Origin: a virus
Reading direction: 5' to 3' (one strand)
Length of the DNA stretch: 64,000 nucleotides
IMG/VR virus record: IMGVR_UViG_3300042346_000188
Location: 1 to 64,000 of that record
Numbering within the stretch: the stretch's first letter is position 1; the number at the start of each line of letters is the position of its first letter. The notes beneath the pieces were generated by a model that had not been told where the DNA came from, did not search any database, and worked only from the letters and a program-made list of their open reading frames with translations. Below are positions 50,701 to 58,781 of this stretch, piece by piece. A program made the translations under genes and the position numbers.

Positions 50701-51396
50701 ATAAATAGCTCTGGAAGCTACACAACTACAGTTAGTAGCGGTACAGCCAAGCCTTTAAAAATAGATATTAATTCCTCTATTGAGAGCAACACAACACTAA
50801 CTTTTAATAATAGCGGTACCATTCAAGGCGAAACTCTTTCAACAGCAAGAGTATTTAATAAACCTGAAAATGCTTTTGATATTTATTGCGCTTGTAAGCT
50901 TGTAATAAACAATAATGGCACAATAAGAGGTAGAGGTGGCAGTGGTGGCAGAGGTGGTTCTTCAATTAATCGTGGCGATTATGATGGCGAAGCTGGCGGT
51001 CCAGGCGGAGATGCTATTTATGCTTCTACAAATTTAACTCTTAATAATTATGGGACGCTTGCTTGTGGCGGTGGAGGAGGCGGTGGAGGTGGAGGTAATG
51101 GTTCTGGTGCCAGTACTTGGAGTAGCTCTACATATGCCAGAAGCACTACATATCCTACTCCGTCAGGCTCTGATGTAGGTACTAATGGCACTTCAGGCAA
51201 GGCAAGCGGTGGCGGTGGTGGAGCAGGTGGTACTGGCGCAAACGGAGCTGCGGGCACTGGTGTGTACGGTACTTACTCTCGTCAAGGTGATAATAGCGGT
51301 ATATATGCGTCAGGCGGTGCTGGAGGTGCCAAGGGTTCTGCACTTACGGGTGGAGGTAGCGTAACACTTAACAACTACGGGACATATTACCCATGA
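47761..51396 (+). CDS. Glycine-rich adhesin-like protein with FN3 repeats
   Basis: Two NNGTI.G.GG polyglycine modules separated by FN3-like domains; directly after the chaperone-bearing fibre. Confidence 0.65.
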   Translation: MPYSISDVNVDLGRTTTATTSLNEPVVRDLLLADPYPAPVNLYPDLSPENNTPPVLSVNTITQNSCIFTWTGGETYGTYQLRGRWKDKDGYWVNIAAGNTLTKGAVFNFGYSGDLRNTMYGYYEVFIVIRFNGIDYLPSNTVNVQLLDWSFEDGFYPATPYGVGSTADANYPNHSVTYRYDIRWFRLALRLKGVADSELGGSAPATYTNFSMSIHRNVTIYDSNNYNGNVVMTVLAGNNNYLWEAPKLIIGIDVGSDHDFTFVYSGIANVDPSDYVLGHYETDTTYQPGDVVCMYSNLVMCIKTCTNIEPFNHASWSYYWDYPPTNPGRAIAFWNTHYARNSTFINNGTILGGGGGGGRGGETTITELYYNPSAFINQKYLKGDAVTHSGNIFVCVTDTVSAYFNGTFTWSTPVRSSHTTYWRFYALSTEKFSTGSDGLQGGPALYQGSGISGGVKLMNNGTIFGGGNGGGGGGGGTVPMSYAVVYGFNGEGTFSSTPVSPAGGDGGHGSFYNRAEVNPSVDFKYKGGMGGKGSINGLTAGENATGANHDYSGDGLGGGYIANNWTEGSFNVLPGGKPLPPVLSIAAVSQNSITLGIAKQDPIGGNTPTGYYIYDSANVQQGSTTNDTFTIAGLTSDTSYSYYVTAYNTLVSASSSTIIGKTALILPTFTFGVDNKTYNSFTVIISKVTSAIYYEIYFNGVLRTTINDSGNSTTVYATGPTMGISSTTYVTVKAYSGTNSSVLTPPQAWTTTYAAVPAVPTSFTYAETNNTNALLSWSGSGVSYKIAVKNQSNNAVTNYTSSIMNITATGLDYGTLYEISIVAVNEIGDSIAYVIPNVMLVDVYLPTLTLSSVTTKTFNVSFGGPMTGHTHTLMLQSMEYSGGWETEIIGAYASGSAFTPPNRSRGKYRLRIQVANSGGKVMATPYLDVQLSDWVISSSTTTNTPQNMSNGWYFNDAWIRNNTTALAASNPESTCLRSVTINSSGSYTTTVSSGTAKPLKIDINSSIESNTTLTFNNSGTIQGETLSTARVFNKPENAFDIYCACKLVINNNGTIRGRGGSGGRGGSSINRGDYDGEAGGPGGDAIYASTNLTLNNYGTLACGGGGGGGGGGNGSGASTWSSSTYARSTTYPTPSGSDVGTNGTSGKASGGGGGAGGTGANGAAGTGVYGTYSRQGDNSGIYASGGAGGAKGSALTGGGSVTLNNYGTYYP

Positions 51397-51845: not shown

Positions 51846-52511
51846 ATGGCCAAAAGAGTTAGGAAGGAACAGCCTACAGATGTTATTGATGCAGTCAAAC
51901 CAATAACACTCTTGACTAAAGCACAGAAACAGTATTTCAATTCAATGAAAACGAATACTATTACTTTTGGGATTGGCGTTGCGGGGACGGGAAAGTCTTA
52001 CGTTGCAATCTCCTATGCTGCACAATTGTTACAAGAGAAGAAGATAAACAAGATTATCTTAACAAGGCCAGCTGTTGAGGCTGGAGAATCGTTTGGATTT
52101 CTTCCTGGAGAGTTAGATGAAAAGTATGCGCCTTATATTGATCCTGTAAAAGATATACTTAATAAAAGATTAGGTACATCTTTCACTGATTACTTGTTTA
52201 AACGAAAGATTATTGAAGCGCGGCCACTAGCATTTATTAGGGGAAGTACTTTTGAAGAAGCTTTTGTAATACTAGATGAGGCTCAAAACTGTACACCTAC
52301 TCAGATGAAAATGTTTCTAACTAGAATTGGCGAAGATGCAAAAGTTGTTATAGATGGGGATATCCAACAAAAGGATATCAAAGGCACATCAGGATTGTCT
52401 GATGCAATTGTAAGATTGCAAGGGATGAACGATGTGGGTATTGTTACATTTGACATTGAAGATGTTGTCCGTAGCGGCATCTGTAAAGAAATTATTAGGA
52501 GGTATGCATGA
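51846..52511 (+). CDS. phoH: PhoH-like ATPase
   Basis: GVAGTGKS Walker A, LTRPAVEAGE, GFLPG, RGSTF, DEAQN and GDIQQ. Confidence 0.95.
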   Translation: MAKRVRKEQPTDVIDAVKPITLLTKAQKQYFNSMKTNTITFGIGVAGTGKSYVAISYAAQLLQEKKINKIILTRPAVEAGESFGFLPGELDEKYAPYIDPVKDILNKRLGTSFTDYLFKRKIIEARPLAFIRGSTFEEAFVILDEAQNCTPTQMKMFLTRIGEDAKVVIDGDIQQKDIKGTSGLSDAIVRLQGMNDVGIVTFDIEDVVRSGICKEIIRRYA

Positions 52512-52690
52512 AGTATATATGGGCAAGGCTTAAAGAGCCTTCAACATGGTTTGGACTGATTTCAGCTACATTAGCTGTATTAAGTTCGTTTAAATTTATT
52601 ACATTAACAGCAGAAGAAATGGATAGTCTGCTTGCGTTGTCAGTTGCTCTTTTGGGCAGTGGTAGCGTAGTATCCAAAGATCCACAATAG
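52508..52690 (+). CDS. Putative holin (two TM segments)
   Basis: RLKEPSTWFG followed by hydrophobic helices; 60 aa. Confidence 0.6.
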   Translation: MKYIWARLKEPSTWFGLISATLAVLSSFKFITLTAEEMDSLLALSVALLGSGSVVSKDPQ

Positions 52691-52696
52691 CGGTAC

Positions 52697-52724
52697 GCCT
52701 CGACACAATTGTCGGGGCTTTTTT
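52697..52724 (+). terminator. Rho-independent terminator ending the late region
   Basis: GCCTCGACA-CAAT-TGTCGGGGC then TTTTTT. Confidence 0.85.
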
Positions 52725-52984: not shown

Positions 52985-53017
52985 CGGAAATAATAGTATC
53001 TTATATGAAGTACAATA
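52985..53017 (+). promoter_or_regulatory. Class B repeat CGGRAA-N5-GTATCTTATATGAAGTACAATA, copy 1 (putative early promoter)
   Basis: Exact 22-mer at 52996..53017; CGG starts 11 nt upstream in all three copies. Confidence 0.75.
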
Positions 53018-53873: not shown

Positions 53874-53906
53874 CGGGAAATACGGTATCTTATATGAAGT
53901 ACAATA
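53874..53906 (+). promoter_or_regulatory. Class B repeat, copy 2
   Basis: Exact 22-mer at 53885..53906. Confidence 0.75.
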
Positions 53907-54587: not shown

Positions 54588-54620
54588 CGGAAAACGGGGT
54601 ATCTTATATGAAGTACAATA
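54588..54620 (+). promoter_or_regulatory. Class B repeat, copy 3
   Basis: Exact 22-mer at 54599..54620. Confidence 0.75.
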
Positions 54621-54658
54621 AGGTACCTCAATTCAATTAATCCAAGAGGAGAAAAATT

Positions 54659-54889
54659 ATGTTTAGTTTACTTGATTCACAATGTGCTTGTGTAGGTAGC
54701 AGTTATGATATATTCACGGAAGAATATTTTGAAGCACTATACCATATCGAGTATGGCGACGGAAAAGAGTCTCACGCCTTCTTGGATCATCATTTGAAGG
54801 GTAAACAAAAATCTGAACCAGCGTCTGAGTTCAAAGACGTAAAAACAATACAGATTCCATTTGAGGAGGAGTTTGAAGGCTATTGGTAA
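54659..54889 (+). CDS. Early hypothetical acidic protein
   Basis: GAGGAG RBS. Confidence 0.6.
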   Translation: MFSLLDSQCACVGSSYDIFTEEYFEALYHIEYGDGKESHAFLDHHLKGKQKSEPASEFKDVKTIQIPFEEEFEGYW

Positions 54890-54896
54890 CAGCCGC

Positions 54897-54926
54897 ATAG
54901 ACCTGAGTAGGTCTATAAAGTGCTTA
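54897..54926 (+). ncRNA. Candidate H-type pseudoknot, copy 1
   Basis: ATAGAC/GTCTAT stem 1 and TGAGTA/TGCTTA stem 2; same architecture at 59283. Confidence 0.45.
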
Positions 54927-54978
54927 TGTGTATAAGGATGTGTATCCTATACTGATGAGACTATAAAGTCGAAACAAC
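54927..54978 (+). ncRNA. Hammerhead ribozyme type III, copy 1
   Basis: GUA site, stem I, CUGAUGA, stem II GACU-AUAA-AGUC, GAAAC; stem III is short. Confidence 0.75.
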
Positions 54979-54996
54979 TCCAAGAGGAAATTTACA

Positions 54997-55281
54997 ATGA
55001 AAAACAAATTAGATAAACTAGCTTTAATTGGTGTCCTAAACACTTTCTGGGTGTTTGAACGCAACGGGATGGGCGGTGTACCCTCCTTTGATTTCACTAA
55101 TAAAAAAGCTGGAGTTAATGTCTGGCACATCGAGGGCGACAAAGTAGGCATAATGTTACTTGAAACAAAGGAGGTATTTGAAACTAACCTAGAATGGGAT
55201 GAGATTTCCGAATCCTATGGGCTTGGAGATTGGGATATTCCAAGATTAAATTCTCTAATTAACTTAACTGAAGGTGATTAA
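54997..55281 (+). CDS. Early hypothetical protein
   Basis: GAGGA RBS just downstream of hammerhead 1. Confidence 0.6.
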   Translation: MKNKLDKLALIGVLNTFWVFERNGMGGVPSFDFTNKKAGVNVWHIEGDKVGIMLLETKEVFETNLEWDEISESYGLGDWDIPRLNSLINLTEGD

Positions 55282-55282
55282 A

Positions 55283-55468
55283 ATGGAAGGTACAATTTTT
55301 GAAATTGGTGGTTATGAGTTTTACATAGCTTGGAATGAAAAGATGACAATCTACAAAGTATGGTATGATCGCGGCCATTACCTTGATAGACGCGCTCCAA
55401 GGTTTGAATGCACTTCTTATGAGGAATCTGTGGCATTCTGTAAACTCAAATACGCTTACTGTGGGTAA
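55283..55468 (+). CDS. Early hypothetical protein
   Basis: AGGTGA RBS; start 55283 or 55274. Confidence 0.5.
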   Translation: MEGTIFEIGGYEFYIAWNEKMTIYKVWYDRGHYLDRRAPRFECTSYEESVAFCKLKYAYCG

Positions 55469-55522
55469 GTGTCTCGGGATGTGTATCCCAACTGACGAGT
55501 CTAAAAAGACGAAACACACTTA
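55466..55522 (+). ncRNA. Hammerhead ribozyme type III, copy 2
   Basis: GUC site, stem I GGGAU-GUGU-AUCCC, CUGACGA, stem II GUCU-AAAA-AGAC, GAAAC, stem III. Confidence 0.88.
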
Positions 55523-55533
55523 GGAGTTATATT

Positions 55534-55710
55534 ATGTTTACTATTGAAATCAATGATGTAGAAATTGAAATGAAAGAAACAGGAATGGGTATTTGGGAAG
55601 GTTCTAAAGAATTTTATCAAGTAGTATTTGATGAATTTCTTCAAGAATTGTTTGTAGCAGCAATGCTAGGCAATCGTATTGTTAAGTGTGAGAGTCAATT
55701 CTTATGCTAA
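55534..55710 (+). CDS. Early hypothetical protein (58 aa, not in ORF track)
   Basis: AGGAG RBS directly after hammerhead 2; MFTIEINDVE...SQFLC*. Confidence 0.6.
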   Translation: MFTIEINDVEIEMKETGMGIWEGSKEFYQVVFDEFLQELFVAAMLGNRIVKCESQFLC

Positions 55711-55828
55711 AACATACAGTTTATGGTATTGGAAATACCGTAATGTCTTCAATAGATATGAGTGCAGATGTAATTACAATTGGGCTAGCATTAGCTCTAC
55801 TTTTAATGTTTACAAAATAGGTGATATT

Positions 55829-56248
55829 ATGTTTCCTTTAATTGCTTTAGGTGTTACAGCTTTAGGTGGATTTGGTTATACTAAAACAAATTCTTACAAA
55901 AGAAAAGTAGAACGTCATGCAAGACGTGCTGCTGAGAAAGCAACAAAAATTGCGAAAACCCAACTAGAGGCTGAAGCCTTGCATGACCTGATGGTAGAAG
56001 ATATGGCTAAGTCAGACTCTGCTAATCTTGAAGGTCGATTCTGTGTTAACGAGAAAGATAAGGAGTTAAAATATGTACGCTCAATACGAACATTAAAGCT
56101 GGATAATTTACAAATACTTTCGTATGAGAAAGATGATACGGAAGTAGCAGTTGTTGATACAAAGGGTTCGGTCGTCCCCTTCTATTTGAAAAAGAACGAT
56201 GCGCTTCTACTACAAGAAATTTTAGACAAACGGTTTCCAACACCGTAA
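55829..56248 (+). CDS. Membrane-anchored hypothetical protein (start revised)
   Basis: AGGTGA RBS; N-terminal MFPLIALGVTALGGFG. Confidence 0.55.
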   Translation: MFPLIALGVTALGGFGYTKTNSYKRKVERHARRAAEKATKIAKTQLEAEALHDLMVEDMAKSDSANLEGRFCVNEKDKELKYVRSIRTLKLDNLQILSYEKDDTEVAVVDTKGSVVPFYLKKNDALLLQEILDKRFPTP

Positions 56249-56552: not shown

Positions 56553-58781
56553 TTGGTACTTATGCGAAATAAATTATTACGTTCTTTAAAGTCTAGAATT
56601 GTATCTGAGATTGCTCCTCAATCTCCATTACGATTCTTAAAGAAGTTGAATATCGAAGATCATCTTGATGAGATAATTGCCAACGCTTATTTGTATACTA
56701 GGCCTAAGAAAGGCTCTGATAAGCAGATTATAATGTCAGAGGTAATTAGTATTCTTGGCCATAACATGCGAAAAGGTGAAAAGAAAGACTCTGCTACTGC
56801 AGCAAGATGCGGAGCATTCATTCTGTATTCTTTTGACAGCTTAGGTCTAACAGAAATTGTAATGACTAATGCAGCCAATGGGCACGGTACATATATTGTT
56901 AATGTAATTGATGAAAAGAGTATGCAAGAGTTGTGGGAAACTGTTGGTAGGCAAGGAGGTAAGGGAAAACTGCCCTCACTAGTACCATATGAAGATTGGA
57001 AAGGGTTTAAACATTCTACAGGCTTGTCTTTAGTTAAGACACAGTCTAGAGAGGTTGCAGCTACACTAACACCAGCTACTCATCCTATTGTATTTGAAGC
57101 AGTAAATAAGAGTCAAAGAGTTGGCTGGATTATAAACCAAGAAGTATACGCAATTGCTAAGTGGGCGTTGAGTAATAAAACAGAAGCATTCTCAGATATT
57201 TGGGAACAAAACAATCCACAGGCAAGAACAACAAAGCTGCGAGAAACCAAAGCAATTTTAAGTATTGCAGATAAGTTTACTGATACAACTTTCTATCATC
57301 TGTACTACCTTGATTTTAGAGGTCGTAAGTACCCTACAACAGCATATCTGCATGAACAATCTTCAGATATAGCTAAAGGCTTACTGCTTAGAAAAGACAA
57401 GAAAGTTATTGGACAAGAGGGTTTCTTTTGGCTATGTGTATCTATTGCATCTAATTGGGCAGGCAGCTCAGGCAGAGAAGATGGTGCAAAGACTGACAAA
57501 ATACCACTTAGAGATAGATACCATTGGGTTCTAGACAATGAAGAGATTTTAACAGCTTATGCAATGTCGCCTAAGTTGCATCAAGGTTGGATGGATGCTG
57601 ATAAGCCTTGGCAATTCCTTGCAGCTTGTGTAGAGCTTAAGAATGCATTAAGTATGGGTTCAATGTACTTACAGTATGAATCACATATAGAATGCTTTAT
57701 TGACGGTTCTACTAATGGCTCTCAACATTTAAGTGCGTTAACTAGAGATGAAGTTACTGCCCCTTATGTTAATTTAGTACCGCTAGATATGCCTGGTGAT
57801 TTATATGCATACGTAGCTGCTCATGTGTGGATGAAGATTGATTCAGTTCTTAGCAGAATGCCACCTGCATTAATACTAGAATGTGAAGAATTCATTGATG
57901 GATTAATATCGCTGAAGAAGAAAATTGTAGCTGCAGAGCCTAAATCTGATTTGAGAGCAGAATTAGTAATGCAAATTAGACAGTACAAAAAAGATTGGGA
58001 ATCTGTTGGCAATAAAGCTGCACCTGTATTCTGGGGTAGAATTAAAGACTCTAAGCAAAGACGTAAAATTGTAAAGAGAAATGTAATGACACTACCTTAT
58101 GGGGGCTCTAGCTATGGTCTATCTGAACAACAAATAGATGATTCAAAGAAACATGGCATAGAGTTGTTAATGAATATGGAGCATAAATGGGCAGCTTGGA
58201 TGGGCAGATTGGTATATGAAGATGCTAAAGACTCGCTAGAAAGACCTATGATGTTGTTGTCTGTATTTGAAAAAGCTGGTGCAGCTGCAGAGAAAAGAGG
58301 TCAATTCTTAGAGTGGGTTGTGCCTGTAACAAACTTTCCTGTAGTACAAAACTATACAGAGGGTAAGACTAAGAGAATACATATTCAGTGGGGGCCTCGA
58401 ATTGGTATTAGAAGCGATACCACAGGATACTTTGGGAATGATCTGCAATTGCATGTATGTTTCATTGAGGATCAAGTTCCCTCAAAAGGAAAGCAGTCTC
58501 AAGGAGCAGCACCTAATGTAATCCATTCTTTGGATGCAGCACATCTAGCAATGACAACAGTTAGATGTGATTTTCCTATCACTACAATACATGATTCATA
58601 TGGATGCCTATTAGCAGACATGCCTAAGCTTTATCGTATTGTGCGTGAGACATTTGTTGAGTTGTACCGAGATAATCCTTTGTACCCTATCATAGATAAG
58701 ATTGATGGTGATCTTACTTATGTAGATATGGGTGATTTGGATGTTAATTTAATTCTAGAAAGTGAATATGCTTTCGCATAG
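56553..58781 (+). CDS. T7-family single-subunit DNA-directed RNA polymerase (stand-alone; start may be ATG 56562)
   Basis: DFRGRKY, PWQFLA, DGSTNGSQH (A), RKIVKRNVMTLPYG (B), PNVIHSLDA and IHDSY (C). Confidence 0.96.
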   Translation: MVLMRNKLLRSLKSRIVSEIAPQSPLRFLKKLNIEDHLDEIIANAYLYTRPKKGSDKQIIMSEVISILGHNMRKGEKKDSATAARCGAFILYSFDSLGLTEIVMTNAANGHGTYIVNVIDEKSMQELWETVGRQGGKGKLPSLVPYEDWKGFKHSTGLSLVKTQSREVAATLTPATHPIVFEAVNKSQRVGWIINQEVYAIAKWALSNKTEAFSDIWEQNNPQARTTKLRETKAILSIADKFTDTTFYHLYYLDFRGRKYPTTAYLHEQSSDIAKGLLLRKDKKVIGQEGFFWLCVSIASNWAGSSGREDGAKTDKIPLRDRYHWVLDNEEILTAYAMSPKLHQGWMDADKPWQFLAACVELKNALSMGSMYLQYESHIECFIDGSTNGSQHLSALTRDEVTAPYVNLVPLDMPGDLYAYVAAHVWMKIDSVLSRMPPALILECEEFIDGLISLKKKIVAAEPKSDLRAELVMQIRQYKKDWESVGNKAAPVFWGRIKDSKQRRKIVKRNVMTLPYGGSSYGLSEQQIDDSKKHGIELLMNMEHKWAAWMGRLVYEDAKDSLERPMMLLSVFEKAGAAAEKRGQFLEWVVPVTNFPVVQNYTEGKTKRIHIQWGPRIGIRSDTTGYFGNDLQLHVCFIEDQVPSKGKQSQGAAPNVIHSLDAAHLAMTTVRCDFPITTIHDSYGCLLADMPKLYRIVRETFVELYRDNPLYPIIDKIDGDLTYVDMGDLDVNLILESEYAFA

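Follow-up and report, generated by a model that had tools for sequence, protein, structure and literature searches.

In an uncultured freshwater phage, the spacer that separates two small genes carries what, judged from its sequence and that of its relatives, is a genuine type III hammerhead ribozyme and more than a product of chance. The element, referred to here as copy 2, has a core span of 57 bases and occupies positions 55466-55522 on the + strand of the window, the whole stretch of 64,000 nucleotides that was analysed. The preceding intergenic spacer contains a second hammerhead, copy 1, in the same orientation and 541 nt further upstream. Copy 2 probably acts in cis as an intergenic hammerhead that, together with copy 1, splits the transcript into messages of one or two genes. 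The motif, its homologues and their covariation were established directly; cleavage in vivo and an effect on expression are inferred.

Structure of the ribozyme and its position between genes

The features of the copy 2 region are as follows.

55283..55468, + strand: upstream ORF, 61 aa, no family match (RBS-ATG repeat D13; stop codon UAA 55466-55468 within distal stem III)
55465..55524, + strand: hammerhead ribozyme copy 2, type III (RF00008, 35 bits at 55466-55520; class model R1, 66.4 bits at 55465-55524)
55471-55473, + strand: GUC cleavage triplet
55473..55474, + strand: predicted scissile bond (C17 = 55473, nucleotide 1.1 = U55474; core position from the Rfam alignment and the descriptor scan)
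55474..55491, + strand: stem I and its loop (55474-55480 with 55485-55491, loop GUGU)
55492..55498, + strand: core strand C3-A9 (CUGACGA)
55499..55510, + strand: stem II, GUCU/AGAC (55499-55502 with 55507-55510, loop AAAA)
55511..55517, + strand: G12 A13 A14 and the 3′ strand of stem III in the catalytic register
55522..55710, + strand: AGGAG RBS (55522-55526) and downstream ORF (55534-55710), 58 aa, no family match

Read from 5′ to 3′, the segment 55466-55522 consists of UAAGUGU, C, stem I, CUGACGA, stem II, GAAA and CACACUUA. The GUC triplet, stem I, CUGACGA, stem II and GAAA that the initial annotation had listed were each found in place, and its description of an element that overlaps the upstream stop codon (55466-55468) and ends at the RBS of the next gene (AGGAG from 55522) was borne out. 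The invariant hammerhead core is complete. It includes the pair between A15.1 (55514) and U16.1 (55472) and the residue H17, which must not be G and is C55473; G12 A13 A14 occupy 55511-55513 and the GAAA occupies 55511-55514. The G10.1-C11.1 pair at the base of stem II is formed by G55499 and C55510. Stem I has 7 pairs, a U-A pair, a C.A mismatch at 55475/55490 and then GGGAU/AUCCC, and its apical hairpin, GGAUGUGUAUCC, is common to the whole class described below, both copies in the window included. In the Rfam alignment and in the descriptor scan the topology was that of type III, in which loops cap stems I and II and stem III is the open one.

Stem III is the element for which the earlier description had to be changed. 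The proposed pairing of UAAGUGU with ACACUUA (55516-55522) does give a 7-pair helix. In this helix the register has slipped, so that A55514 and C55515 stay unpaired within the core, and the pairing is not the catalytic one. The catalytic register has only 4 pairs, 55469-55472 with 55514-55517, and 3 further A-U pairs are possible past a 2-base bulge.

Database scores and occurrence in shuffled sequence

The Rfam model RF00008 (Hammerhead_3) matched copy 2 with 35 bits and an E-value of 8.9e-4 for 64 kb searched on both strands. A search of the window at Rfam gathering thresholds returned no match, the RF00008 cut-off being 48.5 bits. The Rfam check called for by the initial annotation therefore found the hammerhead family by E-value and did not reach the gathering score. 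When all 4227 families were considered by E-value, only two matches were found in the 64 kb, both to Hammerhead_3 and corresponding to copies 1 and 2, and no further hammerhead was found in the complete virus record of 81,115 bp. Two viroid-sized records with the same stem I, L014 and L018, scored 44 bits, likewise under the cut-off, and among four phage contigs searched with RF00008 only one hammerhead of the class reached an E-value of 0.01, so that a score below threshold says little for the phage subclass. The RF00008 threshold is stringent for this subclass and misses it, widespread as it is in phages.

The window was also scanned with a descriptor that demands the core and any residue but G at position 17, a stem II of 4 pairs, a stem I of 6 pairs or more in which one defect is tolerated, and a stem III with the A15.1-U16.1 pair and 2 others. 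Exactly two matches were found, copy 1 (54925-54980) and copy 2. In 500 dinucleotide-preserving shuffles a single match appeared in 2 and two matches never did, which amounts to 0.004 per shuffled window.

Homologues and covariation

Homologues were searched for in IMG/VR with the 12-mer GGAUGUGUAUCC followed within 2-5 nt by CUGANGAG. This pattern was found in 39 contigs, and in 37 of them it belongs to a complete hammerhead, in which stem II and GAAA follow, and then a 3′ strand able to pair with the sequence located 5′ of the cleavage site. The other two matches, in L013 and L016, have no stem II-GAAA and were rejected. The search fixed nothing but the apical part of stem I and the core, so pairing in stem II, in stem III and in the outer three pairs of stem I counts as free evidence. 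In a MAFFT alignment of 24 distinct sequences, 86.6% of the cells were paired, compared with 32-45% when the partners were slid, and changes on both sides were found in 12 of the 18 pairs. In a model-based alignment of 43 distinct sequences the corresponding values were 91% and 30-50%, with both-side changes in 15/18 pairs. Covariation in these alignments is strong for stem II, stem III and the outer part of stem I. The proposed type III identity was thus upheld by the complete core, by the covariance-model match and by covariation in 43 distinct homologues. A covariance model built from the 24-sequence MAFFT alignment, R1, scored copy 2 at 66.4 bits and copy 1 at 60.7 bits and found nothing else in the genome; in the contigs fetched it also picked up hammerheads whose stem I sequence differs.

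The loop I motif (A/C)UGUGUA(U/G) and the loop II NAAA do not change from one class member to another, in contrast to the stems, as would be expected of loops that dock. The G10.1-C11.1 pair is usually held to be important for hammerhead activity. Both copies in the window have it, and this position is not a standard pair in 17 of the 43 distinct class members, for example U.U after CUGAUGA. Four IMG/VR relatives that are about 94% identical cover the site, and all of them keep copy 2, with a loop II of GAAA in place of AAAA (an A-to-G change). As for layout, in the fetched contigs the hammerheads typically start 20-100 nt past the preceding stop codon and end 5-33 nt 5′ of the next start codon, and overlap with the stop codon is the sole unusual feature of copy 2. 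Several contigs of the class have 3-5 hammerheads within a few kb. Arrays of 4-5 in about 3-4 kb were observed at L034:9219-12081, L010:3009-6759 and L037:847-4581. One phage contig with a hammerhead of the class also has a match to a permuted tmRNA family at L003:3258-3515 (79.3 bits, above cut-off).

The viroid-sized L014 (366 nt) and L018 (377 nt), whose sizes are suggestive of plant virusoids and which may be those of VTMoV and SNMoV, although a literature check on the exact lengths did not confirm this, have an identical stem I, GGAUGUGUAUCC, a complete hammerhead and a loop II of GAAA/AAAA. By this sequence identity, the phage subclass shares its docking hairpin with small RNA replicons.

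Copy 1 and the genomic context

The following features lie upstream and downstream of copy 2.

Ends at 51396: tail-fibre-like protein, 1211 aa
54599..54620, + strand: nearest upstream copy of the repeat GTATCTTATATGAAGTACAATA, putative promoter and possible start of a transcript with both hammerheads
54925..54980, + strand: hammerhead copy 1 (RF00008, 27.1 bits, E 0.15; R1, 60.7 bits; descriptor scan)
56553-58781, + strand: T7-like single-subunit RNA polymerase

Copy 1 has a GUA triplet in which A17 is 54932, so that the cut is predicted after A54932. Its stem III has only 3 pairs, its stem I contains a 1-base bulge, and in its predicted minimum free energy (MFE) structure part of the core is taken up into a lengthened stem I. 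The 5′ halves of the two copies are alike and form a 28-nt repeat, D2, with 79% identity. An 8-pair hairpin (UAGACCUG...UAGGUCUA) is located at 54897-54925, between the stop codon at 54889 and copy 1.

The source is an 81-kb phage genome that encodes a tail fibre, an RNA polymerase and a DNA polymerase. From 51393 to beyond 63714 the genes form one run, every sizeable ORF being on the + strand. The hammerhead region of this run is flanked by the tail-fibre gene on one side and, on the other, by the T7-like RNA polymerase gene, which is followed by a Gp2.5-like SSB and a DNA polymerase. The five small ORFs around the ribozymes belong to no PHROGs or Pfam family, megablast of the 2 kb around the site against cultured phages gave no match, and the nearest cultured RNA polymerase, from DSS3_VP1/PM1 phages, is 33% identical. 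Elsewhere in the genome, a 210-aa AAA_33 P-loop kinase-like ORF (71208-71840; L048:7208-7840) was found directly 3′ of a 462-aa ATP-dependent DNA ligase (69692-71080; L048:5692-7080), a neighbourhood that suggests DNA end repair.

A strong terminator-like hairpin (52697-52718; 9 pairs, 6 of them G-C, followed by a T run) stands 3′ of ORF 52508-52690, where the transcript of the structural genes probably ends and the small-gene region follows. Within that region, the exact 22-bp repeat GTATCTTATATGAAGTACAATA occurs at 52996-53017, 53885-53906 and 54599-54620 and nowhere else in the window. Each copy stands shortly before an RBS and an ATG, and the repeat looks like a promoter. No copy was found between 54620 and the polymerase gene, so one transcript could carry both hammerheads and the small ORFs. 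It could comprise, in this order, ORF 54659-54889, hammerhead 1, ORFs 54997-55281 and 55283-55468, which are flanked by the two copies, hammerhead 2, and ORFs 55534-55710 and 55679-56248. That this transcript is early is plausible from its position upstream of the RNA polymerase gene, by analogy with T7.

The small-gene region differs between strains. A cassette at 54641-55270, which includes ORF 54659-54889, copy 1 and most of ORF 54997-55281, is replaced in the four close relatives by 266 nt of unrelated sequence, so that copy 1 is absent, and one RNA-library contig joins 54640 straight to 55271. The exchange of this cassette indicates that the region is mosaic.

Assembled RNA sequences around the two ribozymes

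The stretch is present in metatranscriptomes from three freshwater or lake studies. The RNA evidence consists of assembled contigs; the site is covered in X1, X2 and X4 and is not covered in X7. In the former three libraries, from two studies, no contig crosses 55465-55488, while the flanks are present at depths of 5-37, and the contigs listed account for all of the depth in the bin 55396-55509. Near copy 2, contigs end at 55464, 55489, 55504 and 55527, and none ends at the predicted cut. The relatives have strain SNPs at 55462 and 55503, the contig end at 55504 being one base past the second, and SNPs of this kind, by breaking de Bruijn contigs, can be another explanation of the gap at 55465-55488. 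Copy 1 is bridged by contigs spanning 54800-55011 in X1 and X2, from which it follows that either copy 1 is not fully cleaved or the library contained DNA. The RNA contigs would agree with a copy 2 that is cut efficiently and a copy 1 that is cut poorly, but they give only a weak and ambiguous hint of it because their ends are not at the cut and SNPs can break assemblies.

Another contig of X2, from a different strain, joins the window at 54979 and has a different sequence just before this point, ending in GGCA-AUAA-UGCC-GAAAC-AG. It looks like the 3′ half of a different hammerhead placed before the same RBS and gene.

Competing folds and other readings

In a nearest-neighbour model, the catalytic fold of copy 2 was 5.6 kcal/mol above the MFE structure when the element was folded in isolation, the competitor being the slipped 7-pair stem III. 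With 40 nt added on each side, the difference was 8.5 kcal/mol and the competitor was the following hairpin.

55452..55472, + strand: predicted rival hairpin, 9 pairs, loop GUG (MFE of 101-181 nt contexts; thermodynamic prediction)

This hairpin lies in the last codons of the upstream ORF and is predicted to sequester the 5′ strand of stem III. The gap calculated for copy 2 is the largest among 18 members of the class; the others, a near-identical relative excepted, are at 0-3.2 kcal/mol. The model ignores loop-loop docking and Mg2+, and hence these energies do not show that the ribozyme is inactive. The 4-pair stem III and the stabler rival folds suggest that copy 2 may cleave more slowly, or more conditionally, than most of the class. 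The folding z-scores, -1.1 and -0.2, are uninformative as support. For copy 2, the predicted probability that the RBS is unpaired is 0.19-0.42 before cleavage and 0.61 after it; for copy 1 the values are 0.37-0.45 and 0.50. These gains in accessibility are too small to support a role for RBS release on cleavage.

These folds raise the possibility, which we consider unlikely, that copy 2 is conformationally gated. The 5′ strand of stem III would be held by the hairpin 55452-55472 or by the slipped helix, cleavage would then be slow or dependent on the passage of ribosomes, and the site would report translation of the upstream gene and would not be cut constitutively. The 5.6-8.5 kcal/mol in favour of the rival folds make copy 2 an outlier among the 18 class members, the stop codon lies within distal stem III with the cut 5 nt after it, and regulated cleavage has been raised by Perreault et al. 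for slower phage variants (PMC3088659). However, the folds are predictions with z-scores of -0.2 to -1.1, such a hairpin can arise by chance, and only relatives of about 94% identity keep it, which provides neither independent conservation nor covariation. The more specific version, in which the cut and a downstream message with a freer RBS appear only after ribosomes have read the upstream gene, is a still longer shot. If it were true, copy 2 would be a natural ribozyme switch that couples neighbouring phage genes.

It is also improbable, to about the same degree as translational gating, that copy 2 is a decayed homologue or a neutral passenger of a shuffled cassette and has lost useful cleavage, with the spacer serving as an RBS linker only. 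The short stem III, the C.A mismatch in stem I and the disfavoured active fold could be taken as signs of decay, and the region is mosaic, with relatives that are devoid of the cassette 54641-55270 bearing copy 1. Nevertheless, the invariant core, the G10.1-C11.1 pair and the conserved loop motifs are all intact, copy 2 is kept in the four relatives that cover it, and both copies are in the place typical of the class, just 5′ of an RBS.

A much less probable reading is that the two hammerheads excise a 541-nt RNA (54933-55473) containing two small ORFs, whose 5′-OH and cyclic-phosphate ends are then joined to form a circle. A same-strand pair at this distance with like 5′ halves (repeat D2, 79% identity) would be compatible with it, and hammerheads also catalyse ligation (PMC6155905). 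Against it, no back-joining joint was seen in the RNA contigs, the close relatives have copy 2 only, and spliced or circular products of tandem prophage hammerheads were sought by Perreault et al. and none was found (PMC3088659). Finally, a chance likeness to the hammerhead consensus, for which the score under the Rfam gathering threshold could be invoked, is effectively refuted by the shuffles, the two adjacent copies, the 37 homologues and the strong covariation.

Proposed role

The reading that we prefer is that of an intergenic hammerhead that cuts its own transcript. On transcription, stems I and II would dock through their conserved loops (a loop I of the UGUGUA type and a NAAA loop II), and the 2′-OH of C55473 would attack the next phosphate, a chemistry taken from the established mechanism of the family. 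The upstream RNA would end 5 nt past the stop codon with a 2′,3′-cyclic phosphate. The downstream RNA would begin at U55474 with a 5′-OH, followed by the stem I and stem II hairpins and then, 48 nt further on, by the RBS. Cuts at copy 1 (after A54932) and at copy 2 would yield single- or two-gene messages whose stability and translation would be independent of the upstream sequence. In bacterial mRNA decay, a 5′-OH combined with a 5′-terminal hairpin should slow the decay that depends on the 5′ end, and the fates of the separated cistrons would be uncoupled.

The role put forward in the initial annotation, processing of a polycistronic RNA that leaves a structured 5′-OH end, is a published hypothesis for phages and, by analogy, would fit the context found here (PMC3088659, PMC6765202). 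Perreault et al. described in 2011 hammerheads that flank single genes in prophages, proposed mRNA processing for them and demonstrated cleavage by tandem prophage hammerheads both in vitro and in E. coli (PMC3088659). Reviews still class the role of phage hammerheads as an open question (PMC6155905, PMC6765202). The arrangement at this locus is ordinary, having been described in phages and prophages since 2011. It brings no new principle and is a clean case, in which two copies of differing predicted quality stand in one transcript beside the gene of a phage RNA polymerase.

Comparison with known systems

Type III hammerheads of RF00008 with docked loops, those of plant virusoids and sTRSV, have the same core and topology, a 7-pair stem I and a 4-pair stem II. 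Copy 2 differs from them in that it is found in the mRNA of a dsDNA phage, between protein genes, and not in a circular RNA replicon, and its stem III is shorter and includes a slip-prone GUGU/ACACAC repeat. The prophage clusters of Perreault et al. likewise consist of same-strand pairs, here 541 nt apart, that flank small phage genes of unknown function, and the role proposed is the same, the cutting of long transcripts into gene-length mRNAs (PMC3088659). In contrast to those clusters, the pair described here belongs to a phage of lytic type and lies directly upstream of the gene for that phage's own T7-like RNA polymerase.

The HHphage ribozyme of the haloviruses HF1/HF2 is located in an early polycistronic transcript, 13 nt 5′ of the start codon of the first gene, and a 5′ end of this transcript has been mapped within 3 nt of the cleavage site (PMC3088659). 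Comparably, the RBS here begins with the last pairing base of copy 2, 55522, which is 12 nt before the start codon. HHphage is a structural variant from an archaeal virus, whereas copy 2 is a canonical type III hammerhead that lies between two genes and overlaps a stop codon. The RNase III sites of T7 early mRNA and the synthetic insulator RiboJ also provide intercistronic cuts that place a structured 5′ end before an RBS. Copy 2 is a member of neither group; by analogy it would have no need of a host enzyme, and its products are predicted to carry a 5′-OH and a 2′,3′-cyclic phosphate.
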